Below, piece after piece: positions 14,308 through 63,522 of a stretch of 64,000 nt of DNA. The DNA comes from a virus (lineage: Duplodnaviria > Caudoviricetes). The stretch covers positions 68,414 through 132,413 of the IMG/VR virus record IMGVR_UViG_3300033120_000845, one strand, 5' to 3'. The position numbers were made by a program, and so were the translations under genes. The notes under the pieces were generated by a model. The model did not search any database. It was given only the letters and a program-made list of their open reading frames with translations, and had not been told where the DNA came from. Each line of letters starts with the position of its first letter. Position 1 is the stretch's first letter.

Positions 14308-17300
14308 ATGAGTTGCGGAATAACATACGATAAAAACGGAAAAATAGTAGAAGTCTTAAATGAGCAAGGAAAACCTTCAAAGCTATATAAAGATGCTCTA
14401 AAAGCCACAGGAAGTGAACAGCAAGCTAAAAGACTTTTTCTGTTGACAAAAACCCCTATGTTTAAAGAAGATGTAATAGATGTTGATAATAAAAGACGTG
14501 CTATTCAGATTAAGAAACAAATTTTAGGGGAAAAAGGTGCGCAAAATCTCGACAGAGTAGAAGAAGCTTCTTTTAGAATGGACAATTTACGAGTTGCTAA
14601 AGATATGGAAAAAGCAGGTAAATCTGCTAAAGAAATTAAATTTGCAACTAATTGGGAAAAAGGGGCAGACTCCAAATGGAGATACGAAGCAGAAGACTTA
14701 CAACTAAAACTTGATGAAGTTGAAGTAGATAGAGAGTATAAATTTATAGACATTGTAAAAGAACAAGGGATTGTGAAAGCATATCCTAAATTAAAAGATG
14801 TTAAAATAAAGTTTGAAGATGGAAAAGGATTACACGGAGCACGAATTACAGGAGATGGCTCACTTATTACTATATTTACCCGAAGAGATTTTGTATTCGG
14901 AGGTGAAGAACACGGGATTGAGTCCCTTCTTGGCATTGAAACACCCAACGGAGGAGGAAGGACATATAGATTATCACGAGTGGATATACGAAGTTTGGAG
15001 CACGAAACAACTCACATTGTACAACAACAGGAAGGTTTCAGTAAAGGAGGCAGTCCAAATGATATTAGAGAAGAAGCCTTTAGATTATCAAAAATTAGTG
15101 GAGAAAGTAGACCACAGGTTATTGTAGATGCTTTGGTTAAGACTCTTAAGAATGAAAAAAATGAGAGGAATAGAAGTATCTTGACGGCGACATTGAGTCA
15201 TTTTGTTAGTAACGATATTTTATTAACAGATGAATATAAGAAAATTGCAGGAGAAGTAGAAGCGCGTTCAGTTGAATCAAGAATAGGATTAACTCCTGAA
15301 CAAAGAAGACAATCGCTGTTATCTGAAGAATTAGGTATTTCTCCAGAAGACCAAATATTTTTAGATGGCGCTTTCGATATGCAAAATTTAATTAACCCCT
15401 TAATTAATCGTTTAGAACAAACAGGATTAGCGGATAATGTATATCAGATGTCTTCTAAGCAAATAGAAGAAAAACTTAGAGATATTGGTATTGATGAAGA
15501 CATAGCTAAACAAATATCTGTGTGGCATGGCTCTCCACACTCCTTTAACCGTTTTACAACTGAAAGAATAGGCACAGGAGAAGGTGCTCAAGCTTTTGGA
15601 TGGGGATTGTATTTTACTGATTTGGAGAGTATTGCTAAGAATTACGCAGAAGTGTTATCAGATTCTTCGCTTGATAATTATATAAAAGAGTTTGATGTTA
15701 AGTTAAATACCAAATATGAAAATTTTCACGATATAGCAAATAATTTATCAGAAGGTAAGTTTTTAAACGAGTCTTGGAGAAAAGAGGCGGATAAGTTAAT
15801 TAAAGGAGAGATTAAATTTTACAAAGATGAATATAAAGATGTAGGTATTTCTGATAAAGAAGCGCAAGAAAATTTAAAATTACTTAATGAGTTAATATTA
15901 GATATAAATAATACGCCTAATAAAAACCTTTATAAAGTATCCCTACACAAAGGTAAAACACCTTCTGAATACACTTGGTTAGAGTGGGATAAACCTATAA
16001 ACAAAGACGAAGCAAAAAAGATAGCAGAAGGCTTTGTAAAAAATAACCCAACTAAGTATGTTGATACAGATGCTCAATATCAAGAATCTTTTAGAGAAGT
16101 TGAAAATGAGGATGGTGATATAGATTTAGTAACTGATATCATAAACTCTAAAGAATCTTTAATCAGGTTTTTTACAGGAATGAATGGGAAAGATATTTAT
16201 GATTTTATAAATGATGGATTTTCTAACGAAATATTATCTCAAGAAGAGGAAATATACCAATCAGTTTATGGAAAAGAGAATAACAATCAAAAAGACACAT
16301 CATTATTTTTACTTGAGAACGGCATTGACGGAATAAAGTACCCAACGGAAAGTATATCTCGTGGAGCGACTTCGGATACAGCAAGAGGGTTCAACTACGT
16401 TGTTTTTGATGAAAATGTTATAACAATAGAAGAACAAATACAATTTCAAAAATTAGGAATTGAGTTAACACCAAATGGGTTTACTTATAAAGGCGATGTA
16501 TATTTAAACAAGGATACTTTAACACAAGACACTCCTATTCACGAGTTTCAACATCTTTTCAGCGATTTCCTAAAGAAAAACAATATAGAAATCTACAATA
16601 GAGGTATTGAACTTGTAAAACAAGAGTTAAGTAAATCAAACAGCGAAATAAAAGACATTATAGGATTTGTAAAAGCAAATCAACCAAAATTAAAAGGTGA
16701 AGCACTTTATGAAGAAATTTTAGCGGAACTTGTTGGGAGACGAGGGGTAGAACTTTTAAATTCCAAAAAGAAATCAGGAATCATTAACTGGATTAAGGAA
16801 GCTTGGTCTGAAATAGCTAAAATGTTAGGGTTGAATAATTATTCAAGTGAACAAGTTGCTAATATGACTTTAAAAGAGTTTGCTGATGCTTCTGCTGTAC
16901 AATTATTGAAAGGAGAAAACATTTCAGAAGAATATCCTTTGAAACAAGTTTATGACTATTACCAAGCTAAAAACTACGAAGGTGAAATTTTAAATGAGTT
17001 TGAAGTTGAAGAGGCTAAAGATGTGATGCTTGTAAATAATATTGAGAATTCTAATAAACTGTTTGATAAATTAACAAAGGCTTTTATTGTTGATGGCGTA
17101 TTTAACCCCACAATAAGCTCTTTAAAAACATTTTATTCTGATTTAGAAGTTAGGAGAGCATTTGAAAGTTTAGGCAGCTTAAAAAGCTTCTATTACAGAT
17201 TTAAGAATACAACGCCGTTTGTAAACAATCAAATTGAGTCTGATAAAAGATTTCTATATAGACGTTCTTTTGAAACAAATAGTTTAGGTAAGTTTTCTTA

Positions 17301-18417
17301 TTACAACCCTTTAATTGAACAAGAGAAGTTTAGATTAGAGTTTGGCGGGATAAAAGATGAAATGAGATTTGAAGATAAAAGTCTGTTTGAACAGTATTCT
17401 AAATTAAAAAGGGTTAAAGTAGTGGACAAAAACAATCAGGAAGTTCCACAAAACAAAACTAAAGAATTTTTAGAAATCACTTTAAAAGATGATAGTGACG
17501 GCTCATTTAGAAGAATGATTCGCACACTTTTAAATGCCCCAACAGAATTATGGAATGACGCGGACGTAAGAAAGTTAAAACAGAAGATATACCAAACAGC
17601 AATTAAGCACTCCTTAGATTTAAAATCATTTGAAGATTTAAATGAAAAAGATTCAAGACAATTGATGACAGCTTTGGTAGATGCTTTTGAAACTTCCGAA
17701 TTAGATAATTTTGCAGAGGTTTATGATGAAATTTTTGCTATAAATAAAAAAGCAAGGGAGTTTGTAACCTCTGAAACAAGACCTGTAGTAAAACTGTATG
17801 ATAAAACAAACGATTATAATTTATTTCAACAGTTTGGGTATCTTCCATTAGGTGATAGAGTTTATTTAAAAACAGATGCTTTGGAAAAATCACTACAGGA
17901 AGTAAAAGATATTTTAGGAGAACCTGATGCAAAACTTGTTAAGAGTATTAATTTAGAAGGTGCTGAGAATGTAGATATTGAGACAATGCAAAAAATGGCA
18001 TTATATTCAAAACGATTTAATACGCTTTTAGAAGATAATACAAAACAAGATGAAAAAGTAAAAGGAGAATTCTTTAGCAATTTGTATGGAGAGTATTTAA
18101 AAAATCCAAATAGTCCAGAATATGAAAATTTTATTTTTACAGAAAAAGGATTAGATTACTACATTAACAAAAAAGATAATATAGATTATAGTAAACCTCC
18201 AATTTACACAGGAAATTATTTTAAAGTATCAGAAACAGAAATTCAGGCAGATGAAATACACCCTGAAATAAGAACACAAGACGGAAGAATATACTATCCT
18301 ACATCTAATAATGTATACTCTATAAACAAAGAAGATTATTTAAATAAATATGAACCTCTTGTAAACAATCAACCAATTGTTATAAGAAAAGGTAAAAATG
18401 ATTTGGATTGTAAATAA
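14308..18417 (+). CDS. Polyvalent protein: LPD23-like region, zincin metallopeptidase, ADP-ribosyltransferase-like domain, second HExxH
   Basis: 1369 aa; ATNWEKGADSKWRYE; LEHETTHIVQQQEGFSKGG...AGEVEAR; VWHGSPHSF..F....IGTGEGAQAFGWGLYFTD...GIDGIKY...NYVVFD; TPIHEFQH. Confidence 0.7.
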   Translation: MSCGITYDKNGKIVEVLNEQGKPSKLYKDALKATGSEQQAKRLFLLTKTPMFKEDVIDVDNKRRAIQIKKQILGEKGAQNLDRVEEASFRMDNLRVAKDMEKAGKSAKEIKFATNWEKGADSKWRYEAEDLQLKLDEVEVDREYKFIDIVKEQGIVKAYPKLKDVKIKFEDGKGLHGARITGDGSLITIFTRRDFVFGGEEHGIESLLGIETPNGGGRTYRLSRVDIRSLEHETTHIVQQQEGFSKGGSPNDIREEAFRLSKISGESRPQVIVDALVKTLKNEKNERNRSILTATLSHFVSNDILLTDEYKKIAGEVEARSVESRIGLTPEQRRQSLLSEELGISPEDQIFLDGAFDMQNLINPLINRLEQTGLADNVYQMSSKQIEEKLRDIGIDEDIAKQISVWHGSPHSFNRFTTERIGTGEGAQAFGWGLYFTDLESIAKNYAEVLSDSSLDNYIKEFDVKLNTKYENFHDIANNLSEGKFLNESWRKEADKLIKGEIKFYKDEYKDVGISDKEAQENLKLLNELILDINNTPNKNLYKVSLHKGKTPSEYTWLEWDKPINKDEAKKIAEGFVKNNPTKYVDTDAQYQESFREVENEDGDIDLVTDIINSKESLIRFFTGMNGKDIYDFINDGFSNEILSQEEEIYQSVYGKENNNQKDTSLFLLENGIDGIKYPTESISRGATSDTARGFNYVVFDENVITIEEQIQFQKLGIELTPNGFTYKGDVYLNKDTLTQDTPIHEFQHLFSDFLKKNNIEIYNRGIELVKQELSKSNSEIKDIIGFVKANQPKLKGEALYEEILAELVGRRGVELLNSKKKSGIINWIKEAWSEIAKMLGLNNYSSEQVANMTLKEFADASAVQLLKGENISEEYPLKQVYDYYQAKNYEGEILNEFEVEEAKDVMLVNNIENSNKLFDKLTKAFIVDGVFNPTISSLKTFYSDLEVRRAFESLGSLKSFYYRFKNTTPFVNNQIESDKRFLYRRSFETNSLGKFSYYNPLIEQEKFRLEFGGIKDEMRFEDKSLFEQYSKLKRVKVVDKNNQEVPQNKTKEFLEITLKDDSDGSFRRMIRTLLNAPTELWNDADVRKLKQKIYQTAIKHSLDLKSFEDLNEKDSRQLMTALVDAFETSELDNFAEVYDEIFAINKKAREFVTSETRPVVKLYDKTNDYNLFQQFGYLPLGDRVYLKTDALEKSLQEVKDILGEPDAKLVKSINLEGAENVDIETMQKMALYSKRFNTLLEDNTKQDEKVKGEFFSNLYGEYLKNPNSPEYENFIFTEKGLDYYINKKDNIDYSKPPIYTGNYFKVSETEIQADEIHPEIRTQDGRIYYPTSNNVYSINKEDYLNKYEPLVNNQPIVIRKGKNDLDCK

Positions 18418-18437
18418 TAAATTCATACTTTTGTCTT

Positions 18438-18614
18438 ATGGATAAAATAATGGAAACTTTAAAAGCACTCGGATTTAATGTGGAGAATAAAACTCCCGAA
18501 GAGTGCTTTTCTCTTTTAATAGAGGAATATATTCTACTTTGTCAAGAAATAGAAAAGAGTAACGAAGAACAATTTAAAAAAGAAATACAAAGACTTTTAA
18601 AACCAAATAATTAA
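18438..18614 (+). CDS. Small hypothetical protein (58 aa, below the ORF-track cutoff)
   Basis: MDKIMETLKALGFNVENK...; fills the intergenic gap; its stop overlaps the next ATG (TAATG). Confidence 0.55.
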   Translation: MDKIMETLKALGFNVENKTPEECFSLLIEEYILLCQEIEKSNEEQFKKEIQRLLKPNN

Positions 18615-21600
18615 TGGCTTGTCAAATAGTGTATGATAAACAAGGTAAAATAAAACTTGTTTTAGATAAACAGAAAAGAGAATCTAAGATTTACAATCAA
18701 TTAAAGAGTCATCCTATGATAGATGACCCACTAACAGCGTATACGAACTTTCCTGAAGATATTAAGGATGAGTCTGCGTATAATGTTATACATAAAGTTG
18801 GAGATAAATTTTACAACTCTTATAAAGAGGCTTTAAAAGCCACGAATGAAAATGGTAAGATTGAAATTGTTTTTCAAGGAGAGGGACAGACTAAAGTGTT
18901 GTCCACAATTACAAAATCTACTGATGTAGAGACAAAAGACGGTTTTATTAATTTTTATATTGAAAATAATTTAATCGCTGATAAAAGGAAAAATGGAAAA
19001 TTAACAGGGCAAGGAATTTCAAATAAAGAAAGGCTTTTTAATGCTTTAGAGATTCAAAGATTGGCAGTTTCTACATTGGGAGTGGATTCGTTTAACTTAG
19101 ACTATTATTCATTTGAAATTTCAGAACCAACTTTAGGGAAAACAAAACTGACTCTTAAAAATGGAGAAGAAGTTTTTGTATCGCCCGAAGAAATCACAAA
19201 TATTAACGATTTTAGAAATCCCGAAGAAGCAAATATAGTAAAAAACTATAAAGAGCCTGTATATCGAGATTTACCAAAACCTCAGTCACAATCTGAGGAA
19301 AGTTTGCAACTAAAATTAATGGATGTTCTTAATAACTTAGGAGTATCTGTTATGTCAATTACAGACTATACTAAAAGATATAGAATTAAAAACGGTGTTA
19401 ATCCTTCTGCAAGAGCTTTAGCTGATATTGCTAATGGTGTAATTGCTTTGGAAGAAGGTGTTGCCACTATAGAAGATTTTATTGAAGAGGTGGCTCATTT
19501 TATTGAAAGCGCAACTTCGGCAGAGAAAAAAGAAAACATCCTTAGAAATATTCATAAAACTAAGGAATATATTGAACATGCGGAGGCTTACAGAACTATT
19601 TATTCCGAAGATTATTCAGGAGAAGAATTAGAAAATATTGTGAGAAGAGAAGTTCTTGGAAAAGTGATAAAAAATTCCATTCAAGAAAACGAGCAAAGAA
19701 ACGAAACGGAAAGAAATATTCTTCAAAGAGCTTTTGATTTAATTGTAGATTTCGTAAATAGTATTACCTCCAATAATGAGCTTAAAATATATTTGAATGA
19801 TATTAACGATGCCATAGAACAAAATACTTCGGGACTAATTGACAGGAAAAACATCAACTCAATCTACACATTTTATTCTACTGCCAAAAGTCCTATTACA
19901 AAAGAAGTTTTAAGAATTATTGGACATTTGAATAATGTAAGAACAAATCTACCAAAAACAGACATAGCTTCCATTGTTAAAATAGAGCAACAAATTAATA
20001 CTTCAGAAGAGGTGTATAGTGTTGTGGCACTTTTAGATGTAATTAACCATGCTGTAAAAAAACTACAAAACGCTTTAAAAGATTCAGAAGTGAATAATAA
20101 AGATTATGCTTTCACTTTAGAAGAAACCTCTTTATATTTTGAAACTTTGAATATTGCGGAATCATTGCCAAGAATTGCAGAGGCTTTAAGGTCACAACCG
20201 TTTGAAATCGGCAAAAAAGATTTAAAAGAAGCAACTATCTCAAGATTGCAAGAGGTTAAACAAAATCTTGACACATTAAAAGCACAGAAAGAATCTATTG
20301 TAAATACCACCACTAAAAGAATTGTGGATGAATTGATGCGAGATAGTAATAATCAGCAATCAAGGGAATATTATGAAGAAGCTATTATAAGAGCAAAAAA
20401 TGATGCAACAATCTTGTCTTCAACATTTGGAACTTTAGCAAACTCCACTGATGGTATGTTAAATATTATTGGTAAATTATTAGTTTCGATGACGGGTCAG
20501 GCACATAGAAATATGTATAATGATTATCAAGATTATGTCAATCAAATGGAATCTTTAGGATTTAAAGCTAAGGATGTTGCTGAGTTTTTGGACGGAAACT
20601 ATATGATTTCTGAATTCAATTTAACAGAATTTGATAATGATAATGACAAGGATTTTATCCCTGCTTATAGAGAAATAACACAAGATAGTGAAATAACAGA
20701 TGAAGAAATTATTAAGCAAAAAAATAGCAATTCTTTAAAAATTGATAGCGATATTTTCCAACAAGTTTCTGCGCGAGCTATGGAACTTTCAGATGTCAGA
20801 GTGGAGAAAAGTAGAAAGCCCGAATTCTATGAAAAAATTGAGCAACGTTATCAAAACGCAGGAATAGAAAAAGACAGCCCCACAAGAGCATATCTCAGTG
20901 TATTCCTATCGGAAGTTAGCAAGTTTAAAAATAAAGCAACAGATGAGAACGGCAAAACAGACTACACAAAACTATCCTTACAAGAGTATGAAACTCTAAA
21001 ACAGTTACAACAAGACAGAAAACTAAAAAAGGATTATTTTGATATTACATCAGGAGAACTTAAAAAAGGATTAGAATACAAAGGGCTTGATGAAAAAGGA
21101 AAACCTATTTATACTTTAGCTGATACTAATGTTTCTGATGAGGCGCGTATTGCTTTTGAGTTAAATAAATTAGATGCCCTCACTTTAGAGGAACTTAAAC
21201 AAGGCGGTGATAGAGACAATACAAAAGCATTAAGAGATTTCAAAGATAGTTTAAAAGGACTAAGTAGAGAAGCACAAGTTAGATTTATTGAAGTGAATGC
21301 CACTTTAGGTTTTACAGAGGCTTATTATGAAGCAATTCAAGCTAAGGTTTTAAATGAAGACGGAAGCGTGTCTGACAAGCCGAGTATTCTATCTCAAATG
21401 TTAGAGCAAGGTAAGGATGAGCAAGCTAAAAGATTAGCGGAGATTAATTCTCAAATTAATACTTTACTTAAGGCTTACACAAGTAAAACAAACCCAACAG
21501 AAATTGTTGCCGATGATATTCCTGAAACAACAAAAGAATTAATCAGACAATTACATTCTGAACGCACAGCTATTATTCAAGATTTTTCGGGCGAAACATT

Positions 21601-27512: not shown

Positions 27513-28475
27513 TTAATTTGGAGTAGCAATTGTAATGTTTTTACCTTTAGGTTTAGCTGTTCTACTTCTACCAATACTTCCACACTTCCCGCATCGACAA
27601 GCATCGTATTGGTTAGTATAGGTAGTGTAAACACCTTCCCATTTTAAATCTGTTGAACCACAACTATGGCAAGAATGGATGTCCTCCGCAACAAATAAGC
27701 CGACATTAGGGTGAGGCTTGATATAAGGCAGTAATGCTAAATATACATCTTCTAATAGACGAACATCTTGAATATTATAAGTTTCCATTTCTGTTAGAGC
27801 TTCGTTTTCTCCTTGCATACATCGTTTCCATAAATCAAAACCTCCTGTAGATAGTTTTTCACCCAATCCTAAGAACTTTCCAATATAGTCAAGTTTGTTA
27901 GACGTAATATTAAACCTTCTTCGAGCATGAATTAGGGTATCAATAACTTGATAAGGCATTGGTGGTGTAAGACCATTTTTAAGGAATCTTGTATTTATGC
28001 GTTTAATGTCAAACTTTAAAGCGTTATGAGCCACAACCACATCAGCTTCCTCTAATAACTCCCACAAACTTTTTGAAATACGCTCATCGTTTTCATTTAA
28101 CACTTCTTCCGAAGTAAGTTTATCTGACATGACTTTATCATCAAAAAGCCATTTAGCAGACCAAGTAAGCATAAACCAATCTGATTCAAGCATATTTAAA
28201 GAATGTCCTAAATTTACATTCCAAATTCCCCAAACATAACTTTTCAGAGGAGCTGTTTCTATATCGAAGACTAAAATTTTCATTGAATGCTTTGGTGTAG
28301 TTATTTCTTCACTGTAACTTTCCTTTGCCCCAACTCTATCAAGCCACTTAGAAGCCGACCTTCTTACAGAATCTGAATAAGGTATGCTATTAGCTTCACA
28401 ATAAGCTTTGGCAGCTCTTGTAATGTTTTCTTCTCTATCGTAGAGATTTTGTAATTGATTTAAATTAAATTCCAT
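27513..28475 (-). CDS. DEDD/RNase H-like 3'-5' exonuclease with C-terminal Zn ribbon
   Basis: ILVFDIETAP, VAHNALKFDI, IDTL, YNIQDV; CHSC...CGKC. Confidence 0.8.
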   Translation of the reverse strand: MEFNLNQLQNLYDREENITRAAKAYCEANSIPYSDSVRRSASKWLDRVGAKESYSEEITTPKHSMKILVFDIETAPLKSYVWGIWNVNLGHSLNMLESDWFMLTWSAKWLFDDKVMSDKLTSEEVLNENDERISKSLWELLEEADVVVAHNALKFDIKRINTRFLKNGLTPPMPYQVIDTLIHARRRFNITSNKLDYIGKFLGLGEKLSTGGFDLWKRCMQGENEALTEMETYNIQDVRLLEDVYLALLPYIKPHPNVGLFVAEDIHSCHSCGSTDLKWEGVYTTYTNQYDACRCGKCGSIGRSRTAKPKGKNITIATPN

Positions 28476-29841: not shown

Positions 29842-30192
29842 TTATTTTAATTTCTCTCTAATTATTTTTGAAAAATGTTCAGGTGTTAAATTTTTATTCT
29901 GTTTCATAGCTTTTCGCGCCCAAATTAACTCGTTGTTAAAATCTCTTCTATGTGCGTAATAATCTGCCGTAAGCATAGGTATAGCCCACTTTCTATTCTT
30001 TTTCTTAAACTTATTATGACAACAAACACCGCCTATAAACCCGTCTCTTGTAACATAAACCTCATCATCATAAGAACCACAAGTACTAAAAGCAATGGTA
30101 TAATAACCATCTTTATCCGCCTCTTTAGTCATAAATATAAATTTATCTGAATATATTCGCTCCCAACCTAATAAAGTTAATTCATTTTTCAT
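29842..30192 (-). CDS. Hypothetical protein
   Basis: 116-aa ORF in the - operon. Confidence 0.5.
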   Translation of the reverse strand: MKNELTLLGWERIYSDKFIFMTKEADKDGYYTIAFSTCGSYDDEVYVTRDGFIGGVCCHNKFKKKNRKWAIPMLTADYYAHRRDFNNELIWARKAMKQNKNLTPEHFSKIIREKLK

Positions 30193-33056: not shown

Positions 33057-33884
33057 TTAAATTTTAATGTTTTGTAAAGGGGATTGTATTTTACTAATTG
33101 TAGAATGAGAAATATGTAAATATATAGATGTGGTTTTAACAGAACTGTGACCAAGTAAGCGTTGTATCATGTTGATATCAATTCCTGCATCACACATGTG
33201 GCTTGCTGAACAATGTCTAACCAAATGTGTATAGACTCTTTTGTCTAATCCTGCCTTTGTAGCTAATTGTTTAACAACTTGTAACACACTTCTTGAAGAA
33301 TATTGTTCTGAAAATTGCCCGCCAAAAATAAAAGACTTAGTTTTAAATTCGCGGTAATATTCCTCCATTAATTTTAGTAATGTGTCGTTCAATCCCACTT
33401 GCCTGTTTTTTCCACCCTTAGCATTTAGTATATAAATAATCATTCTACTTCTATCAATATTTTCCCACCTTAAATTAATGAGTTCTGAAACACGCAAAGA
33501 ACAAGAGTATAAAAGTGCTAAAATTAACTTATGCTTCCTATTCTCACACATATCAAACATTTTTTGAATTTCCTCTACAGAGAGAATGATTGGCAAGCTT
33601 TTATCTTTCTTTGTATAAGGTATATTTTTAAACTTTTGTTTTTGATTTAAACAAATATCATAAAATAACTTTATAGCAGAATGATAGTTTCTTTGAGTAT
33701 TAGCTTTTATGCAATTGCTTAAAAAATGTTTAATGTCTTGTTCATTGATATTCTTAGGGTGGTCTTTATTAATAGTGGATAAAAACACATCAATGCAACT
33801 ACTGTAATTTTTAATACTGTTTTCTCTATATCCTCTTCGTTTCATTTCCTGAATGAAAGTTTGTTTGTGTTCAGAAGTTTTCAT
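33057..33884 (-). CDS. Tyrosine recombinase/integrase (candidate cassette integrase)
   Basis: N-terminal SAM-like domain (RRGYRENSIKNY); intact catalytic set LRVSE, AKGGKNR, HLVRH, LGH, TTSIY; no IntI-specific insertion visible before the HxxR box. Confidence 0.9.
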   Translation of the reverse strand: MKTSEHKQTFIQEMKRRGYRENSIKNYSSCIDVFLSTINKDHPKNINEQDIKHFLSNCIKANTQRNYHSAIKLFYDICLNQKQKFKNIPYTKKDKSLPIILSVEEIQKMFDMCENRKHKLILALLYSCSLRVSELINLRWENIDRSRMIIYILNAKGGKNRQVGLNDTLLKLMEEYYREFKTKSFIFGGQFSEQYSSRSVLQVVKQLATKAGLDKRVYTHLVRHCSASHMCDAGIDINMIQRLLGHSSVKTTSIYLHISHSTISKIQSPLQNIKI

Positions 33885-33886
33885 TG

Positions 33887-33944
33887 TTAAGTATTGATTT
33901 TATTAGTGTTTTAGAGTGTGTAATACATATTTATGTTAGGCGAT
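33887..33944 (+). other. attI-like primary site of cassette array 1
   Basis: 27-bp motif TTAAGTATTGATTTTATTAGTGTTTTA (33887-33913; 26/27 identical at 62895-62921), then GTT core at 33935 with no preceding hairpin; immediately upstream of the integrase start. Confidence 0.65.
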
Positions 33945-34289
33945 ATTTGGACACAACTCGTTTAACAAATCGAAAGACTTATTAAAATTCTCAAATATTG
34001 GTTCTATATCGTTCCCTGTACTTTCTCCATTTAAGAAAAACTCGCAACTAATACTTTTTTCTTGGCACAAATATTTTATAGCCGAAACAAAGTCTGGACT
34101 ATTTGAATAAAAGTCCATTGATTTATTTAACGACAATGCTTTTTGTGCTTGTATCACCTCATTTAGTGGGTGCAACTGATGCCTACACTTATCTTCAATG
34201 GAAACTCCACAGTAAACACGAATAAAAACATCGCCTAACACAGGTTTTGTGCTATTGCTTTGCTCGGTGTTTAAATTTTGCTCAGTCAT
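33936..34289 (-). CDS. Cassette 1 hypothetical protein
   Basis: Starts inside the attC-like loop; TAA stop is the complement of the GTTA core. Confidence 0.7.
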   Translation of the reverse strand: MTEQNLNTEQSNSTKPVLGDVFIRVYCGVSIEDKCRHQLHPLNEVIQAQKALSLNKSMDFYSNSPDFVSAIKYLCQEKSISCEFFLNGESTGNDIEPIFENFNKSFDLLNELCPNIA

Positions 34290-34371
34290 AATATGTAATG
34301 TTTAGTGTTTAAATTAAAATTTGTTTTATTTTTGGTCGCAACAGACACAAAGCCTGAAAACGTTAGTGGCA
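34230..34371 (+). repeat. attC-like site 1
   Basis: ATCGCCTAAC-a-CAGGTTTTGTGCTATTGC...GCAACAGACACAAAGCCTG-aaaac-GTTAGTGGCA. Confidence 0.85.
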
Positions 34372-34374
34372 ATT

Positions 34375-35079
34375 TTAAGAAGCGTTCGTGTCAATAACAA
34401 TCGGTTCTATAAATGTACCAAGTTCATATTTTTTATTCTCTCCTTTTGGATAAGGTTTAATTTGATAATTAAGTTTTTTCATATACTCTTTTCTTTTAGT
34501 TTTACTTGTTGCAAAATAAATGTATCGGTGTTTAGCACTTCTGTATTTTCTTAAACCTTTTTGTTTTTCATTATCGTAGTGCCTTGAATGTTTTCCACCT
34601 TCAACATATTTGTCAGTTCTCGCTTTTGTCATTCCTGTATAAATCCAATTTGTAGCTTGATAAATATATCCGTTATGGTTCATTTGAGTATCAGCATAAG
34701 AAACTAAAATTAAATCTTTTGCTTTCAATTCATTTAGACACCAAGCCACAAATTTAGATAGTTGTATTTCAATTTCGCCATCAACACAAAGTCGGTTTAA
34801 TTCAAATACCTTTTCGCTATATTCTTTTCCACAAACTCCAATACATAAACTATTACTTGCAGGTTTACCAAATGTGCATACTGCTTTTAAGACATCTTTT
34901 TCATAATAACCAAAAGAAAAAGTAATACTCGGTTTTCTACCTGAATAGTGGCGAGGTAATAAAAAATCAACCGCTTGTTTATACGTTATTGAAGAAAAAC
35001 TGCCACTAACACTGCATATACGCAATGTGGGGTTTAGTGCTTCAACAATGTTTTGGTTTTCAAATAAACTTTTTTGCAT
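34375..35079 (-). CDS. Cassette 2: Mom-like (GNAT-fold) DNA adenine-modification protein
   Basis: FLLPRHYSGR, VCTFGKPAS, FELNRL, VSYADTQMNHNGYIYQATNWIYTG, KHRYIY. Confidence 0.75.
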   Translation of the reverse strand: MQKSLFENQNIVEALNPTLRICSVSGSFSSITYKQAVDFLLPRHYSGRKPSITFSFGYYEKDVLKAVCTFGKPASNSLCIGVCGKEYSEKVFELNRLCVDGEIEIQLSKFVAWCLNELKAKDLILVSYADTQMNHNGYIYQATNWIYTGMTKARTDKYVEGGKHSRHYDNEKQKGLRKYRSAKHRYIYFATSKTKRKEYMKKLNYQIKPYPKGENKKYELGTFIEPIVIDTNAS

Positions 35080-35137
35080 AATTTAAATTTTAGTTTTTAT
35101 AAGTCCCACACTGCGTATATGCTTTTACGTTAGCGGA
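35001..35137 (+). repeat. attC-like site 2
   Basis: TGCCACTAAC-act-GCATATACGCAATGTGGG...CCCACACTGCGTATATGC-ttttac-GTTAGCGGA. Confidence 0.85.
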
Positions 35138-35141
35138 GATA

Positions 35142-35780
35142 TTATTCACGTTTTGTTAAATAAGACTTTAAATGCTCACGATATTCAGGAGTTCTATTTT
35201 TCACAAGAAAATCAATAGTTTTATTCATTTCAATTTTACGATACTCATCTATTCCAATTTCTCTCATTTTTAAAATCACATCGCCTGTTACTCCAAAACA
35301 ACAATCTTCATAATCCGATTGGTTTTTATAATTGTACATTTTAGTTTTGTCTATTTCAATTTCTGAATTGACCAAGCCTTCTAAAGTTGGAAGTTTTTTA
35401 TATCTTTCTATTCTTTCTTTTTTTCTTTGTAAACCTTCAAATATTAAATCCAAGCAATGTTCTTTAGTGTATCCGTAAACGTGTTGTGAAGCCGTTGAAA
35501 AAGAACTATAAATAGAATCACTATAATTAGTTTCTTGCGGATGCCTTTCTTCTACTTTTATTTCCTCATCTAATATTAAATCAAGATATTGCTCTTTAGT
35601 GTGTTTATGGACATACTCATTTAAGTATATTTCTTTTAATTCATTTTGAACTTTTTTAGCAACATCATAATCTAAAAATTCTTTTCTTAAATTTACAAGA
35701 TAATCCTTTCTACAAATACCATCCGCTAACACAGGTTTTGTGCTATTGCTTTGTTCGGTGTTTTCTGAATGTTTGGTCAT
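35142..35780 (-). CDS. Cassette 3 hypothetical protein
   Basis: Starts in the att loop; N-terminus NTEQSNSTKPVL shared with cassette 1. Confidence 0.7.
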   Translation of the reverse strand: MTKHSENTEQSNSTKPVLADGICRKDYLVNLRKEFLDYDVAKKVQNELKEIYLNEYVHKHTKEQYLDLILDEEIKVEERHPQETNYSDSIYSSFSTASQHVYGYTKEHCLDLIFEGLQRKKERIERYKKLPTLEGLVNSEIEIDKTKMYNYKNQSDYEDCCFGVTGDVILKMREIGIDEYRKIEMNKTIDFLVKNRTPEYREHLKSYLTKRE

Positions 35781-35859
35781 AATCTGTATTTTTAGTGTTT
35801 AAATTAATGTTTTGGTCTATTTTTACGCAACAGACACAAAGCCTGATAACGTTAGCAAA
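35722..35859 (+). repeat. attC-like site 3 (near-copy of site 1)
   Basis: TCCGCTAAC-a-CAGGTTTTGTGCTATTGC...GCAACAGACACAAAGCCTG-ataac-GTTAGCAAA. Confidence 0.85.
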
Positions 35860-36304
35860 CAGTTAATTCACGGCCTGTTAAAGCGAAATAAAAGTTTTGA
35901 AGTTGATGAACATATTTTACAACATCAAAAAAAGTAGAGCCTTGAAATCTTAATCCAAAAGTTTTTAAATTATGTTTTGGCAAAAAATAATCAAATCTTG
36001 TGTCTTTTTTCAACTCGTATCTTAATGTAAACTCGTTATCAATTATTTTTTCAAATCCGAATTTCATTAACCATTCCTCATTTATTTCAATCGGTTGATA
36101 ATCTTCGTTCATTTCGTGTTTTATTCCAAAAATCCGTAAATCATCATAGTCAATTTCTGAAACTTCAAGCCATTCTTTGCGTTCATCCATTTTATCAACA
36201 ATTCTATAATTTATCAAATTACCTATTCTAAACTCCTTATCCGTAACCGATTTGCTAACATCGGTTTTGACTAATGCCTTACTTGGTTTTGTGCTTTTAC
36301 TCAT
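35852..36304 (-). CDS. Cassette 4: Bacteroidota-phage-type hypothetical protein
   Basis: EFRIGNL...QPIEINEEWLMKFGF...VHQLQNFYFALTGREL; stop within the GTTA core. Confidence 0.7.
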   Translation of the reverse strand: MSKSTKPSKALVKTDVSKSVTDKEFRIGNLINYRIVDKMDERKEWLEVSEIDYDDLRIFGIKHEMNEDYQPIEINEEWLMKFGFEKIIDNEFTLRYELKKDTRFDYFLPKHNLKTFGLRFQGSTFFDVVKYVHQLQNFYFALTGRELTVC

Positions 36305-36389
36305 TGGTTTTTAATTTAAAAATTAGTTTGTGCTTTTGTGTCTAGTCTTTAATTTACGGCACTAGACAAAGCCGAGAACCGTTATGCAC
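36251..36389 (+). repeat. attC-like site 4
   Basis: TTTGCTAAC-a-TCGGTTTTGACTAATGCC...GGCACTAGACAAAGCCGA-gaacc-GTTATGCAC. Confidence 0.85.
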
Positions 36390-36408
36390 AAGCACTACGT
36401 TATCGTTT

Positions 36409-37155
36409 TCAAATGAAATTTACGTTATAGACTAAATCCTTTTCTTCCTTGTTTATAATGTATTTTCCTGCTTCAAAATCACTTCTTACCCATTTAGCAA
36501 GAAAATCTACTTCGCCTTTTCTTTCAACTCTATAAACCATTCCTTCGGGTTTTTCATCAGGTGTAATTCCGTATGTTTTTTTGTTTAGTTCTGGTAATAT
36601 ATTTTCAACAGTTTCTGATTTTCCTCTGTGTAATAGTCTTGGAAGTTGTATTTCATATTTATTATAAAAACTATCCAAAACATCAAAACTGCTTCTTTGG
36701 TTATTTGCTGTAAAATGGTCAAAGAAAACTATCGGTTGTAATCGGGTATCAATATTATATTTAATTCCGTGTGCTTGCGCTAACCATTCTCCTGTAATTC
36801 TTTCTCCATTTTTTAACAAATCCATCCAAGTCATTATATTTTTATAAACCCAATCACTAAATAAATGATGTTGCTTGTAAGGGCTTGTATTTGCAATATA
36901 TCCACTTCTAGTAAGTGCAACTATTCTATTGTCAATTTTTCCAATTCCTACATTAGAACCGTCATATTTTTCAAAGACAAAAATTTCATCGTTTTTATCT
37001 CTAACTTTTACAGTTAAAATTCTTTCTTGTCCTTTATCTATAAAATGGTCGCCAGTTCCTAAATTACTATTTGATAAATGAGGAATTGAACCGTAATTTT
37101 TAATACCTAATGGTTTCATAAGTTCATTTATTTTTAAAATACCGTGCCAGTGCAT
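36409..37155 (-). CDS. Cassette 5: ATP-dependent RNA ligase-family protein (start may be 37119)
   Basis: Motif I EKYDGSN; GEW; FFD; PEGMVYR; AKWVR. Confidence 0.8.
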   Translation of the reverse strand: MHWHGILKINELMKPLGIKNYGSIPHLSNSNLGTGDHFIDKGQERILTVKVRDKNDEIFVFEKYDGSNVGIGKIDNRIVALTRSGYIANTSPYKQHHLFSDWVYKNIMTWMDLLKNGERITGEWLAQAHGIKYNIDTRLQPIVFFDHFTANNQRSSFDVLDSFYNKYEIQLPRLLHRGKSETVENILPELNKKTYGITPDEKPEGMVYRVERKGEVDFLAKWVRSDFEAGKYIINKEEKDLVYNVNFI

Positions 37156-37287
37156 AACAGCAATTTTGCGCTATTACCGTTTTAGGCTTTGGGTTATGTT
37201 AATTTTGTATTTGTTAATATTATTTCTTAATCAATGATTTCGGCTTTCTTATCGGTAACAGTCGCAAAGTTGCAAAACGTTATGCGC
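37150..37287 (+). repeat. attC-like site 5
   Basis: GTGCATAAC-a-GCAATTTTGCGCTATTACCG...CGGTAACAGTCGCAAAGTTGC-aaaac-GTTATGCGC. Confidence 0.85.
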
Positions 37288-38301
37288 AACCTTTCGTAAT
37301 CGTTTCCATAATACGATTTTGCGCTATATCGAAATAGTTTTTATCCATTTCTATTCCAATAAATTTACGGTTAGTGTTTACGCAAGCTACTCCAGTACTA
37401 CCTGAACCCATAGTAAAATCTAAAACAGTTTCACTTTCATTTGTATATGTTTTTATTAAGTACTCCATTAAATCTAATGGTTTTTGTGTTGGATGTACCC
37501 TTAGTTTAACCCTAAAATTAAAATTAAGTATATTGGTATTTCCAAAAGTACTGTTGTAAACTTCCTCTATTTCTTTATATTCAAATAAACCTAATGGTTC
37601 TTTTAATTTATTCCACATTTCCATAGTAGGAACTTGTCCGCATTTATTATTCCCAGTATAAATACTCCACATTCCACCTCCATTTTTAGCAACTCCAAGT
37701 AGACTATGAAAATCATCTTTACCTAAACCGTATTTTAAACAAGCTTCTTTTTTATTACTTTTGCTATTTTTGGTCTTGCATTTTTAGTATTCACATTTAT
37801 CAGCTCACATATATTTGGGTGCATTTTATATTTACCAATATTCCTGCCACCTAAAACTTGTTTTCCTTTATTTATAAACAGTAATTCTCTGTGTATTAAG
37901 TTGTTTTTTAATAAATTTGGATATATAAACTCTTGGGTTTTATGTGAACCAAATATAATTAATCTGCCACCACTTCGTAATGTTCTTGAACATTCTGTTA
38001 TTACACTATTAAAAAAAATATTAGCTTCATTAAATGTTTTATTGTCCCACGATTCATTAACCATACCAATGTAAGGTGGGTCAACAATAACAGCATCAAT
38101 ACTTCCATCAGGTATTTTCTTCATCAATTCAAGACAATTTCCGTTCCACAATTCAGGCAGCGCATAACAGCGGTTTGGAGCAATTGCCGTTTCATTTTCA
38201 AATAAACTTTCTTGCATAATATCAAATTTTGTTTTCATAATTAATTTTTCGGTACGGCAACTGCACCAAGCCGTAGGCGTTATAATAAACTTAACACACA
38301 A
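37280..38301 (-). CDS. Cassette 6: beta-class N6A/N4C DNA methyltransferase split by a -1 frameshift at 37747-37753 (true start probably near 38217-38238)
   Basis: Upstream ORF has GNCLELMK..IDAVIVDPPY; downstream ORF has HPTQKP..VLDFTMGSGSTG..FIGIE; the -1 frame is open across the junction. Confidence 0.8.
38160..38285 (+). repeat. attC-like site 6
   Basis: GCGCATAAC-ag-CGGTTTGGAGCAATTGCCGT...ACGGCAACTGCACCAAGCCG-taggc-GTTATAA. Confidence 0.85.
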
Positions 38302-38577: not shown

Positions 38578-38892
38578 CTAAATAATTTCCTTGTATTTTA
38601 ATTTCTTTCCGCGCAAAATATCACCAATGAATTTGTCAATATTCCACTGCCTTAAAACTTTACTCCAAGCTTTTACTTTAAGTTTATATTCTTCTTCTGT
38701 TAAGTGTGGATGATGATTCTCTCTGTTCATAATATTATTCCAGTGCTCATTGATTACAATATCCAATTCTTTAGCTTTTTCCGCCAAAAAATCTTTATAA
38801 AGTTCTTCAACATTATCACACTTAACTTCCCAAACATTATTGATATAAGAAGTTTCGCAGAGTGAATCATAACGTTTTGTAATGTAAATCAT
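38578..38892 (-). CDS. Hypothetical protein
   Basis: Packed ORF. Confidence 0.5.
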   Translation of the reverse strand: MIYITKRYDSLCETSYINNVWEVKCDNVEELYKDFLAEKAKELDIVINEHWNNIMNRENHHPHLTEEEYKLKVKAWSKVLRQWNIDKFIGDILRGKKLKYKEII

Positions 38893-38894
38893 AT

Positions 38895-39281
38895 TTATAA
38901 ATAATCAAAAAAATTAGTACTCTTCTTTAAGTCATCAAATCCTTCTAAATACTCATCAGCTTTTTCTAAATATTCTGTTTTATATTTTTTCCACAATAAT
39001 AATTCTTCTTCTAAATCTTTTATTTTCTTGTCAAAATGTTCGGCAACCTCTTTCTTATTAAAACAGCATTCAAAGTTAGATATAACACCCCAAAACTTTT
39101 TATAATTGTTATTTACTAACTTATCAAAGAATATTTTAGAGCTGTAAAACTTATTTTTACTTTTAAGTTCTTCTGAATTAAGAGATTCTTTTTCAAATTC
39201 AGTGTAGTCTCTAATCACTACAAAATTTCCAAATCTACCTTCTTTAGTGTAAAACACTATTTTACCTTCGTCTTTTTTCAT
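38895..39281 (-). CDS. Hypothetical protein
   Basis: Packed ORF. Confidence 0.5.
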   Translation of the reverse strand: MKKDEGKIVFYTKEGRFGNFVVIRDYTEFEKESLNSEELKSKNKFYSSKIFFDKLVNNNYKKFWGVISNFECCFNKKEVAEHFDKKIKDLEEELLLWKKYKTEYLEKADEYLEGFDDLKKSTNFFDYL

Positions 39282-41595: not shown

Positions 41596-43614
41596 CTAAT
41601 GCGTTTCAGATATATTACTTCCCACTTGGGTTTCACATGCTAACTCTACATTTAATCTCAATTGACTATTAACCCTTCTCATTGCTTCACTAATAATATC
41701 AATAGTTTTTTGAGTATTTGATTCTTCTACAATATACGCTGAATCGTCATGTGATTGAGTTACAGGAAAAATTCCCATCTGAGTACAATTCCATACCCAC
41801 ATGTTGAAGCAATAAACTGCGCTAGACTGGTTTATAATACTGAAAATATCTTTTGAGTTCCTACAATAATAGTAGAATTTTGAAATAGGGTTATATATCC
41901 AAGTCTCATCCCCAACTTTTTTTGAAATAAAGCTATTTGTTACTTCTTTTACTGCAAAATGAATTTGCCAATACGAATCTATAAGTTTTTGTGCTTCTTT
42001 TTTAGATATTTCTAAAGTTCTGCCTAAAGTCTCACTGCCTACAAGGTAGAGTGAGCTATAGTTACAAGTTTTCCCCTTACTTCTAACATTTTTCAATTTT
42101 TTCATTAAATCATTTTGCTCCGCCTCAGGTAAAGAAAGTAATTTTCTAACTTCATCCGTTGGTTTATAAAGTTCACTAAAGGTTTCAACATCTAAGTTAG
42201 GGTTGTCTTTCACAGCGGATTTAAATATATAGAAAACCTCCTCATCCGAAGACATTAGCCCTGCAAAAACAGAAATTTCGCAATGGGGGTCAAAGTAAGG
42301 CATTTGTGTTTTTTTAATTCTCTCAGGATTGATAAAAAACGTATAATGGTCTGACGTTCTACTTTCAATACCTGAAAGGTCACTCTGAACAATTTTCTTC
42401 CCTTCTCCCGCTATAAGGCACTCTCTAATCCATTTTCCATCCCTAATATCTCCTTTTCCTGTATAACGAGGAAGATTCACCAAAACGGAGTGCATCCACC
42501 TCATAGAAACGGCTAAGGCTTGTAAACCTTGAGAAATCATTTCATTTTCATCCATTTTAGAAAGAAATGATTTTAATATACCTATCCTATGAGTGAGAAT
42601 TGTAAGTCCATCAAAAGCTTCAATAGCAGGCTCTTTATCAATTAGCTTTAAAACACTTGAACAAAGCATTTTATCCTCTGTCATAATCTGCTCAACTACC
42701 TTAGTTTCATTAGTTTCTTTATCCCTATTGTGTTTAAATGTTTTTGGACTCCATCCCAAAAGATAAAGCCAGTCTTTTTTTTGTTTTACGGAATTTGGAT
42801 TAGGCTCTTCCCAAGATATAATTTCTTCAATTTCACCATCGTAATTATCAGACAAATTGCATCCTTTAATTAATGTCATCCATTTTTCTCCAGCCACTGA
42901 AAGACTTCCATCTTTTTTATACAAGGAGTTTGGCTTCTTTCTCTTAACTTTTACAGGAATTTTAGGCATTGCTTTTCTAAGCTGCTCTAATTTTTCTTCC
43001 TTTAATGATTCAAAGTATGCAAGATTTTTTTTAGTCTTATCAACATCAACTTTTATCTTCTGCTTCTCTTGCATAAAAGAGCAGTCCATAATCCAATTTA
43101 ATAGGTTTATAAGTCTTATTTTATCTTTTGAGCTATCTTCATACATTAAGTCAAGTTTAGCTCTTAAATCTTCCCAAAGTAGTATATTAATCTTTACATC
43201 TTCTTCACAACGATGGACATATTCTTCATAAGACAAGTTTTCCCAATCTGTTATTTTTGGTTTTGGTACTCCATAATCTTCTCCGAATGATTCTAAGCCG
43301 AATTTTTTCCCCTCTTTTGCACGAGTTGGATAAAGCCACCAAGCCAAAGCTAAGGAATCAATAACAGTTGCTGTAACAGTGATATTGTGTATTTTTTCCA
43401 AAACAGGCTTGTCGTATCGTCTTCCATTATGCATTACAATAATGTTTTCAGGATTACAGAATACTTTTTCTACATCTTCTTTTTTATCTGTAGATTTTAT
43501 TACCCATTTTCCTTCGCTGTTTTTATAGCCGACAGATAGTACATGCATCTTTGTCACTTGCTCAATTAACCCATCAGTTTCGCAGTCTGCAACAAAAATC
43601 TTATCTAAATTCAT
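41596..43614 (-). CDS. polA: Family A DNA polymerase with 3'-5' exonuclease
   Basis: Exo motifs ADCETDG, HNGRRYD, RCEEDV; pol motif A SDLSGIESR, motif B RSKGKTCNYSSLY, motif C QSHDD. Confidence 0.92.
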   Translation of the reverse strand: MNLDKIFVADCETDGLIEQVTKMHVLSVGYKNSEGKWVIKSTDKKEDVEKVFCNPENIIVMHNGRRYDKPVLEKIHNITVTATVIDSLALAWWLYPTRAKEGKKFGLESFGEDYGVPKPKITDWENLSYEEYVHRCEEDVKINILLWEDLRAKLDLMYEDSSKDKIRLINLLNWIMDCSFMQEKQKIKVDVDKTKKNLAYFESLKEEKLEQLRKAMPKIPVKVKRKKPNSLYKKDGSLSVAGEKWMTLIKGCNLSDNYDGEIEEIISWEEPNPNSVKQKKDWLYLLGWSPKTFKHNRDKETNETKVVEQIMTEDKMLCSSVLKLIDKEPAIEAFDGLTILTHRIGILKSFLSKMDENEMISQGLQALAVSMRWMHSVLVNLPRYTGKGDIRDGKWIRECLIAGEGKKIVQSDLSGIESRTSDHYTFFINPERIKKTQMPYFDPHCEISVFAGLMSSDEEVFYIFKSAVKDNPNLDVETFSELYKPTDEVRKLLSLPEAEQNDLMKKLKNVRSKGKTCNYSSLYLVGSETLGRTLEISKKEAQKLIDSYWQIHFAVKEVTNSFISKKVGDETWIYNPISKFYYYCRNSKDIFSIINQSSAVYCFNMWVWNCTQMGIFPVTQSHDDSAYIVEESNTQKTIDIISEAMRRVNSQLRLNVELACETQVGSNISETH

Positions 43615-62967: not shown

Positions 62968-63399
62968 CTATACGGATAAACCTAATTGATTAATAGCATT
63001 AGTGTTTAATTCAAACTCAAAATCGAATCCTAATAAATCCTCAACAAGTTCATTTTTGCTTATCCAAAATCTTTCTTCGCCATCACTATCTTTGTATGTA
63101 GTTTCGAACATATTTTCCCCAACTTCAAAATCTGTGAAACAATCAAAGAAAACGCTTCCTTTTGCTTCATTATAAACCCCTAATTCGGCTTTATAGTCAA
63201 ATTCAGTGGAAAAATGGATTCTTTCAGGTTCTTCCAAAATTCTTTCCGATTCATCTGTTACAGCAAACATTTTAAGTGTTATAGGCTGTTTTAAAAAATT
63301 AGCGTAATTACTAATCTTTGTAAGCATTTTTACCTCGTCATAAGGTGGATTTTCATTTAATAAATTCAAACAAAAATCTGTCATTGGAATTAGTTTCAT
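62968..63399 (-). CDS. Cassette hypothetical protein (Bacteroidota-phage type)
   Basis: MKLIPMTDF...NYANFLKQP..LKMF. Confidence 0.65.
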   Translation of the reverse strand: MKLIPMTDFCLNLLNENPPYDEVKMLTKISNYANFLKQPITLKMFAVTDESERILEEPERIHFSTEFDYKAELGVYNEAKGSVFFDCFTDFEVGENMFETTYKDSDGEERFWISKNELVEDLLGFDFEFELNTNAINQLGLSV

Positions 63400-63422
63400 A
63401 ATCTATTTGTGTTAATTAAACC

Positions 63423-63522
63423 ATCGTTTAACAAAGGTTTGGCGCAATAAAGCCAACACCTTCTGATTAATATTCTTGTTTTTCTAAGGCTTTACTTCGC
63501 CAAGCCTCTGGACGTTATAAGC
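63423..63522 (+). repeat. attC-like site 7
   Basis: ATCGTTTAAC-aa-AGGTTTGGCGCAATAAAGCC...GGCTTTACTTCGCCAAGCCT-ctggac-GTTATAAGC. Confidence 0.85.

Follow-up and report, generated by a model that had tools for sequence, protein, structure and literature searches.

What the genes between positions 34375 and 38301 are for, and whether they travel as exchangeable units, is the question raised by the window analyzed here, a stretch of 64,000 nucleotides (nt) forming the second half of a 132,413-bp IMG/VR virus record (CheckV completeness of 92%). The preliminary description of this locus had proposed a swappable anti-defence kit. Exchangeable cassettes and DNA-modification cargo were indeed found, but the type of RNA ligase, a second sample of related arrays and a frameshifted methyltransferase spoke against a kit of that kind. 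The array is probably, although by no means certainly, an accessory-gene platform with a strong anti-restriction component and not a pure anti-defence kit. In this view, six mobile cassettes form an integron-like array within the early/replication half of a Flavobacteriia phage with a genome of 132 kb, and a neighbouring Xer-like tyrosine recombinase would swap them at G|TT cores. The recognizable cargo consists mostly of enzymes that chemically mark phage DNA, namely a Mom-like protein and an N6/N4 methyltransferase in this array, and a Dcm-type and two compact C5-like methyltransferases elsewhere in the genome. Going by established knowledge of such enzymes, they would shield the phage DNA, both on entry and during replication, from restriction enzymes of the host. 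Swapping of cassettes would then re-tune the restriction protection of phage lineages to local hosts, with the RNA ligase and many small uncharacterized proteins riding the same vehicle.

The genome has a G+C content of about 30%. Its plus-strand half contains genes for very large virion proteins, and its minus-strand half contains the replication genes (DNA polymerase, DnaB-like helicase and ribonucleotide reductase). The array belongs to this early/replication half, between the genes for a polymerase exonuclease subunit (27513-28475) and a polymerase (41596-43614). All named cargo genes of the array are on the minus strand and read towards the recombinase gene. In the plus-strand direction, the order within every cassette is TT-gene (antisense)-AAC-hairpin-G, so that the hairpin is located at the 5' end of the gene itself and the start codon falls inside or adjoins it. 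The occurrence of these cassettes in Flavobacterium phages at 84-95% nucleotide identity points to a host among the Flavobacteriia, i.e. Flavobacterium-like bacteria. The array, and a second one at the end of the window, comprise the following features, including several open reading frames (ORFs), with protein lengths in amino acids (aa):

33057-33884, minus strand: Xer-like tyrosine recombinase of 275 aa (PF00589, E-value (E) 1.3e-36, and PF13495), directly downstream of the array in gene direction.
33935-33937, plus strand: hairpin-less GTT core adjoining the recombinase gene (attI-like array end), read from the sequence.
33936-34364, minus strand: cassette 1, ORF117 (33936-34289; no informative family; isoelectric point (pI) 4.7), with its 5' hairpin site at 34237-34364.
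34365-35131, minus strand: cassette 2, Mom-like DNA-modification protein (34375-35079; PF25680, E 4.8e-29), with its 5' hairpin site at 35008-35131.
35132-35853, minus strand: cassette 3, ORF212 (35142-35780; no informative family), with its hairpin site at 35728-35853.
35854-36383, minus strand: cassette 4, ORF150 (35852-36304; phrog_10066), with its hairpin site at 36257-36383.
36384-37281, minus strand: cassette 5, RNA ligase, nucleotidyltransferase domain only (36409-37155; PF09414, E 1.4e-23), with its hairpin site at 37156-37281.
37282-38281, minus strand: cassette 6, beta-class N6/N4 DNA methyltransferase, frameshifted (start ATG 38238, end 37280; PF01555 on both halves), with its hairpin site at 38166-38281.
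62968-63516, minus strand: array 2 cassette, ORF143 (62968-63399; no informative family; pI 4.2), with its hairpin site at 63430-63516.
63515-64000, minus strand: array 2 C5-methyltransferase-like gene (phrog_757, E 3.7e-49), with its 5' end cut by the contig end.

A first line of evidence for exchange concerns the cassettes shared with other phages. The Mom cassette was found in 12 other IMG/VR viral contigs, with 84-95% nucleotide identity and among unrelated neighbours. In all 12, the shared stretch runs only from the hairpin interior or outer end (about 35097-35133) to the next GTT core (34350-34362). Similarly, the RNA-ligase unit was present in six IMG/VR contigs, and in five of them the similarity extends to the GTT core at 36376-36380 and no further; in the sixth and most distant contig, the match stops inside the gene. 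In one of these contigs (L110), the shared stretch extends from 37282 to 36380 and includes the upstream hairpin. The same unit has about 94% nucleotide identity to the Flavobacterium psychrophilum phages 6H, 2A and FPSV. Furthermore, the arrays of Muminvirus phages, which carry the same kind of array, differ by whole cassettes. Units of one gene plus one hairpin with boundaries at G|TT were thus found for Mom (12 contigs) and for the RNA ligase (L110), and, to judge by these alignments, the cassettes are real mobile, exchangeable units, with a presumed crossover point at G|TT.

Secondly, the sites between the genes have the build of attC sites. Six imperfect hairpins of 116-128 nt separate the array genes, each bounded by AAC and GTT and each with unequal spacers, which in most sites amount to 1 nt after AAC and 5 nt before GTT. 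Loops in these arrays are long (90-135 nt) and contain the start codon. With a duplex energy of -22 or lower, 18 sites were retrieved from the genome, versus 1-2 from random genomes with matching dinucleotide composition. Of the 18 sites, 16 were located within arrays, namely the present one, an array spanning the contig ends, a solo cassette or an inverted array. A gapless inverted-repeat search and a simple regular expression did not single out the sites. In addition, each gene body has cassette-specific complementary ends (e.g. GTTAGCGGA...TCCGCTAAC), and the flank of the hairpin-less GTT core is complementary to the opposite end of the ORF117 cassette (GTTAGGCGAT / ATCGCCTAAC); this core presumably functions as attI.

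Thirdly, the recombinase gene is associated with such sites elsewhere too. All four homologues of the recombinase in IMG/VR adjoin hairpin sites. In three cases the gene closely follows a multi-site array on its downstream side; in the fourth (L012), about 1.1 kb separates the gene from the only site detected in that locus. The best NCBIfam match of the recombinase was NF040815 (XerA/integron integrase), with 206.8 bits below a cut-off of 220. The integron integrase model TIGR02249 scored 165 bits versus a cut-off of 265, with the match in two stretches, and PRK15417 scored 83 versus 435. According to these NCBIfam models, the 275-aa protein is not an IntI-type integrase with the IntI-specific extra domain. 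Nor does the array consist of promoterless cassettes reading outward from a Pc promoter at attI, as all genes are antisense to that orientation; since they face the recombinase gene, no Pc-type arrangement is possible. We infer that cassette exchange at the G|TT cores is the work of the Xer-like recombinase.

The first 15-25 codons of the cassette genes, together with the start codons, are located inside hairpins (35008-35131, 38166-38281, 34237-34364 and 35728-35853). The leader MQ[KE]SLFEN is common to Mom, the N6/N4 methyltransferase and methyltransferases of other phages, and the leader TEQSNSTKPVL is common to ORF117 and ORF212. Start codons and leaders inside the hairpins suggest that the site doubles as a translation-start module.

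In the T4-type hyperplastic regions, promoter/stem-loop modules flank small early genes and favour modular shuffling. The hairpins of the present array could likewise be expression signals (terminators, promoters or translation-start modules), the cassettes arising by homologous recombination between repeated hairpins. Such an origin would agree with the start codons and conserved leader peptides inside the hairpins, with the lack of a recombinase within the fetched locus for most arrays, and with the finding of one hairpin type on different genes, one contig (L105) sharing the hairpin only; repeated stem-loops beside small early genes are a likeness to the T4-type modules. However, the shared stretches stop at the invariant GTT cores and not within the repeated arms, the complementary ends are specific to each cassette, which would be expected if a circular intermediate is formed, and the recombinase adjoins the hairpin-less core, a position kept by its homologues. 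The sites also differ from the T4-type modules in their AAC/GTT cores, asymmetric spacers, cassette-specific complementary ends and adjacent tyrosine recombinase. Moreover, a site of similar build in Polaribacter phage P12002L has been recombined by IntI1 (PMC9892861). An origin as expression signals is therefore considered very unlikely, and exchange of whole cassettes at the cores by a site-specific recombinase is preferred.

As regards the cargo, the Mom-like DNA-modifying protein announced by the preliminary description was borne out. The protein encoded at 34375-35079 matched PF25680 with 101.9 bits, versus a gathering score of 27.1, over profile positions 4-202 of 202, and phrog_1384 with E 1.2e-57, indicating that it is a true member of the family. 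Its gene is single in the whole genome. More distant Mom homologues often lack hairpins altogether.

In ten viral contigs, among them some of 70-140 kb, the match to Mom is limited to its last 47 codons (L095, L099, L103 and L104 aligned at the nucleotide level; L096-L098 and L100-L102 by protein match only). In nine of the ten, a hairpin site starts 14 nt past the match, as it does after full-length Mom, and the four nucleotide-aligned remnants, of roughly 150 nt, end at the GTT core. From these alignments, the partial copies look like decayed Mom cassettes.

Of the C5 methyltransferase-like gene of array 2, also part of the preliminary description, the fold was retrieved but not the Pfam membership, and the gene is truncated by the contig end. 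A full copy (genome positions 63-707; 214 aa) is 93% identical. The protein matched phrog_757 ('DNA methyltransferase') and no Pfam family, and is thus not a PF00145 member by sequence. A PDB sequence search gave no match for this protein or for the RNA ligase. The AlphaFold model of the array 2 protein has a predicted local distance difference test score (pLDDT) of 81.6, and its top PDB Foldseek matches were all C5 cytosine methyltransferases, with M.HaeIII (1dct; E 2e-7) as the best one. Indeed, the PPC and EN motifs are invariant among 35 homologues of the protein. Both the modelled fold and these motifs suggest that it probably acts as a C5 methyltransferase. An hhalign comparison of the tiny C5-like family alignments with Dcm aligned only the PC motif (probability of 7.6%) and was superseded by the fold search. 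A true PF00145 member (Dcm-type; E 2.7e-42) is encoded by the gene of the solo cassette (genome positions 14562-15467).

The distribution of these genes over the genome is strongly skewed. Cassette regions make up 9% of the genome and contain 22 of its 200 ORFs of at least 50 aa. All five DNA-modification genes found in a genome-wide search for seven families (PF01555, PF00145, phrog_757, PF25680, PF02086, PF05869 and PF02384) are located in cassettes (hypergeometric p 1e-5, or 1e-4 when the two C5-like copies are counted once). Apart from these, the cassettes encode the RNA ligase, two membrane proteins (in the inverted array) and some ten small soluble proteins for which no match was found. 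The inverted array (genome positions 17782-20486) encodes the two membrane proteins, which are clearly hydrophobic (84 and 151 aa) and are not DNA-modification-type cargo.

A similar skew was found in related arrays. A first sample (L006-L052) was collected with a 22-nt probe for one hairpin type, which in the window is found on ORF117 and ORF212 and not on a methyltransferase. This sample comprised 47 IMG/VR loci on about 44 viral contigs of 2.5-143 kb, with arrays of up to 18 sites. Its cassette ORFs, bounded by two sites, encoded 217 proteins in 168 families at 50% identity, and its flank ORFs, more than 150 nt from any site, encoded 436 proteins in 360 families; the median protein length was equal (101 aa in cassettes and 99 aa in flanks). 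An iterative local profile search assigned 29 of the 168 cassette families and 6 of the 360 flank families to methyltransferases (odds ratio 12.3; p 1.6e-10), and among proteins of at least 180 aa these were 19 of 26 and 6 of 79, respectively. At least one methyltransferase was carried by 19 of the 29 arrays with three or more cassette ORFs. Among 150 cassette families, Pfam recognized N6_N4_Mtase in 14, YopX in five, C5 methylase in two and Dam in one, besides a few singletons. Among 150 flank families, HNH endonucleases, DnaA-C, helicases and one C5 methylase were recognized, with no N6_N4 methyltransferase among the 25 families listed; PHROG tallies agreed with the Pfam tallies. The complete cassette Pfam list of this sample contained no restriction endonuclease, indicating that the cassette methyltransferases are orphan enzymes. 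Similarly, PADLOC recognized only methyltransferase models among the 25 cassette families listed, which gives no sign of defence systems as cassette cargo. In the GenBank annotation of Flavobacterium phage filifjonk9-1, six methyltransferase genes are located along one array region.

Protection of DNA from restriction is the established function of Mu Mom and of orphan phage methyltransferases, and it is most likely that the DNA-modification cargo of these arrays serves anti-restriction as well. Orphan methyltransferases with regulatory roles exist too, such as those of P1 and the CcrM-type enzymes. Mom and the methyltransferases might accordingly serve the phage's own replication, packaging or expression control, as in the case of Dam in P1, and the position of the array in the replication module, between polymerase genes, could be taken in that sense. 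However, the first sample contained 29 methyltransferase families in 168 cassette families, with presence or absence varying between close relatives, and such diverse and variably present enzymes fit an arms race and not a fixed regulatory need. Furthermore, the N6/N4 gene is dispensable in the present phage, as it is frameshifted. Indeed, 15 methyltransferase genes have been described over 35 Muminvirus genomes, of which those lacking one methyltransferase plated poorly on host LMO6, although hairpins or cassettes were not mentioned (Nilsson et al. 2020; PMC7077304). In view of these points, a role confined to the phage's own biology is among the least probable explanations, and protection against restriction remains the preferred one.

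Several findings weigh against an array devoted to counter-defence, the first being the state of its own methyltransferase, which is out of frame. The gene is split over two ORFs, one at 37735-38301 with the DPPY motif and one at 37280-37672 with TMGSGSTG, an FxGxG-type motif, so that the two PF01555 motifs are found in different frames instead of in a single ORF. The frame break is located in an A6 run (37748-37753), which is one base short of the in-frame length. Both halves align to intact homologues of 250-280 aa, and the alignment to an intact orthologue of 315 aa (P0121; 91-95% identity) changes frame at the A run. In the zero frame, this run forms the classical -1 slippery heptamer A_AAA_AAG. 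On these grounds, the break may represent a recent mutation, a homopolymer sequencing error or -1 slippage. An IMG/VR search did not retrieve close relatives of the frameshifted gene. The N6A/N4C methyltransferase of the preliminary description is thus present, with PF01555 on both halves, yet not as one continuous frame.

The RNA ligase is a second such point. The established countermeasure to anticodon nucleases is T4 Rnl1 together with Pnkp, and the preliminary description had invoked tRNA repair by T4 RNA ligase for the present array. The gene is indeed present in a cassette, but it encodes an Rnl2-type nucleotidyltransferase domain with a KYDG lysine motif and without C-terminal domain, and PF09414 was the only ligase family matched. 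A Pnkp partner was not detected in the genome (no match to PF13671, and only a 14-bit fragment with stops for PF08645). The likeness to T4 tRNA repair (Rnl1 and Pnkp versus PrrC) is that of a phage-borne RNA ligase; the family is another one, and no kinase/phosphatase partner was detected. Because the ligase is Rnl2-type and no Pnkp was detectable, the anticodon-nuclease argument is not transferable. A role against RNA-cleaving defences is possible by analogy.

Nor did family searches, or a fold search with ORF150, link the uncharacterized cassette proteins to anti-defence. ORF117, ORF212, ORF150 and ORF143 had no informative family match in Pfam, PHROG and NCBIfam searches. The family of ORF150 (phrog_10066) comprises 806 homologues, all annotated as 'hypothetical'. 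Its AlphaFold model (pLDDT 81.9) had no PDB Foldseek match with E of 0.001 or lower, and its BFVD matches were uncharacterized phage proteins only; in the ESM Atlas, ORF150 matched only 'hypothetical' viral clusters and ORF212 gave nothing usable. ORF117 and ORF212 matched other cassette proteins only weakly (E 1e-7 to 4e-4), and these matches plausibly stem, as far as the alignments indicate, mainly from their common hairpin-encoded leader peptide. Known anti-defence types (Ocr, Ard and Acr) were not seen with Pfam, PHROG and NCBIfam, no dedicated anti-defence library being used. Extending the label of anti-defence kit to the RNA ligase and the uncharacterized proteins is a hypothesis.

The best VIA match of ORF150 (Z 5.1; frataxin-like and MotA C-terminal-like sheets) was not considered trustworthy. 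A DNA-mimic-like acidity of the small cassette proteins was rejected as evidence as well: their median pI was 6.6 versus 8.5 for flanking ones (p 0.003), but there was no excess of proteins with a pI below 5.

The main caveat comes from a second sample (L053-L114), collected by way of Mom, RNA-ligase and recombinase relatives and comprising 95 cassette families, from which the gene used for ascertainment was excluded. Only one of these 95 cassette families was a methyltransferase, versus four of 312 flank families, so that there was no enrichment, and the Pfam list was mixed (lysozyme, HTH, GIY-YIG, PAPS reductase and Bro-N). The methyltransferase excess is thus clearly uneven between lineages, although pooling of both samples still gave 30 of 263 versus 10 of 672 families (odds ratio 8.5). 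Mom was absent from the 150 first-sample cassette families examined with Pfam, and Mom and the RNA ligase are occasional or rare, not typical, cargo. About 80% of the cassette families had no Pfam match. Furthermore, the cassette and control sets are imperfect. The energy scan misses short hairpins, so that cassette counts are lower bounds; when short loops were permitted, specificity was lost and the 50-60 nt sites of P12002L were still missed. The catalogue of cargo therefore agreed with the proposed skew to counter-defence as far as DNA modification in this genome and the first sample are concerned, and departed from it in the second sample. The recognizable cargo is biased to DNA modification strongly but not uniformly.

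These same findings could mean that the cassettes form a general accessory pool, dealing with host takeover, superinfection exclusion, regulation or moron functions, in which methyltransferases are conspicuous because they are large and recognizable and of which the uncharacterized majority is not related to defence. Besides the many families without match and the second sample, the membrane proteins of the inverted array and the recurrence of YopX would be in line with this, and strongly acidic, DNA-mimic-like proteins are not enriched (22% of the cassette proteins and 18% of the flanking proteins have a pI below 5). However, the same pipeline applied to flank genes of equal median length retrieved 1.7% methyltransferases, versus 17% in cassettes, and from 180 aa onwards these figures were 8% and 73%; in addition, there is the exclusive location of the DNA-modification genes of the present genome. 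A general pool is rather unlikely, even if it deserves more weight than the other alternatives, and a platform with a strong anti-restriction component is retained.

YopX was the only recurrent Pfam family other than methyltransferases, with five of the 150 first-set and one of the 95 second-set cassette families. Single cassettes of the first sample encoded an R2K ATP-grasp, a SLOG-type (YAcAr) protein, DUF5131 and a PAPS-reductase-like protein.

The arrays found with the hairpin probe were rich in methyltransferases, with no Mom seen, and in those found through Mom, methyltransferases were nearly absent. Mom and the methyltransferases might be alternatives to one another, or the contrast may be one of lineage. 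More broadly, and as a tentative possibility only, Flavobacteriia phages might share a phage equivalent of the bacterial integron, with a pool of cassettes of hundreds of families, moved by a Xer-like recombinase to counter host immunity. In that case, the small uncharacterized cassette proteins would be a rich, already delimited source of new anti-defence proteins. Mom and the methyltransferases would then be alternatives by lineage, and each hairpin would act both as a recombination site and as a translation-start module that provides the leader.

Part of this is already known. Clusters of attC sites (CALINs) have been described in virulent phages, including Polaribacter phage P12002L with two methyltransferases; IntI1-dependent recombination was demonstrated for phage attC sites; and such cassettes were proposed to help phages overcome restriction (Qi et al. 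2023; PMC9892861). Both the methyltransferase-bearing attC clusters of virulent phages and the anti-restriction proposal are thus prior knowledge. In P12002L (L116), hairpins of 50-60 nt with an AAC-spacer-stem...stem-spacer-GTT build were found at about 30013-30065, 38033-38095 and 38880-38935; a Mom-like gene and a methyltransferase gene each have one on their 5' side, and the remaining one is flanked by two further methyltransferase genes. AAC...GTT-bounded hairpins and orphan methyltransferase cargo are hence common to phage CALINs and the present arrays. Unlike the CALINs, the present genome has a resident Xer-like recombinase, with related arrays of up to 18 sites. The loops are of 90-135 nt with a start codon, and the genes are antisense to the classical cassette orientation. 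Also, the present cargo was quantified against flanks and includes Mom, RNA ligase and C5-like enzymes. In the literature, no paper was found on a resident Xer-like recombinase, inverted gene orientation, start codons in the sites or a quantitative cargo analysis.

With bacterial integrons, the array shares the cassette unit TT-gene-AAC-hairpin-G, the hairpin-less core beside the recombinase gene and the stockpiling of conflict-related genes, but the recombinase fails the IntI models, the carrier is a phage and the recognizable cargo counters defence instead of providing it. Sedentary chromosomal integrons are banks of anti-phage defence systems (bioRxiv 10.1101/2024.07.02.601686). Compared with Mu Mom and orphan phage methyltransferases, the families are the same (PF25680, PF01555 and PF00145), but here, and in many sampled arrays, they are packaged as individually mobile cassettes, with as many as five of them in a single array.

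A phage cassette platform with anti-restriction enzymes, as a match to the defence-stocked integrons of bacteria, would mean that both parties of the arms race use the same genetic device. The hairpin boundaries delimit hundreds of small uncharacterized phage genes that travel with known counter-defence genes, and these constitute a short, testable list of candidates for new anti-defence proteins. The cassettes could also explain why nearly identical flavobacterial phages differ in host range; among these are phages of the fish pathogen F. psychrophilum, which are considered for use in aquaculture.

Lastly, each contig end (genome positions 61-548 and 131926-132413, the latter being window positions 63513-64000) falls in a copy of the C5-like methyltransferase gene, the two copies being 93% identical, and the hairpin at window positions 63429-63524 matches genome positions 1986-2081 at 96%. 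The duplicate gene and the hairpin match indicate that array 2 runs on into the array with which the record begins, and the two may be one circularly permuted array that was split by the assembler.

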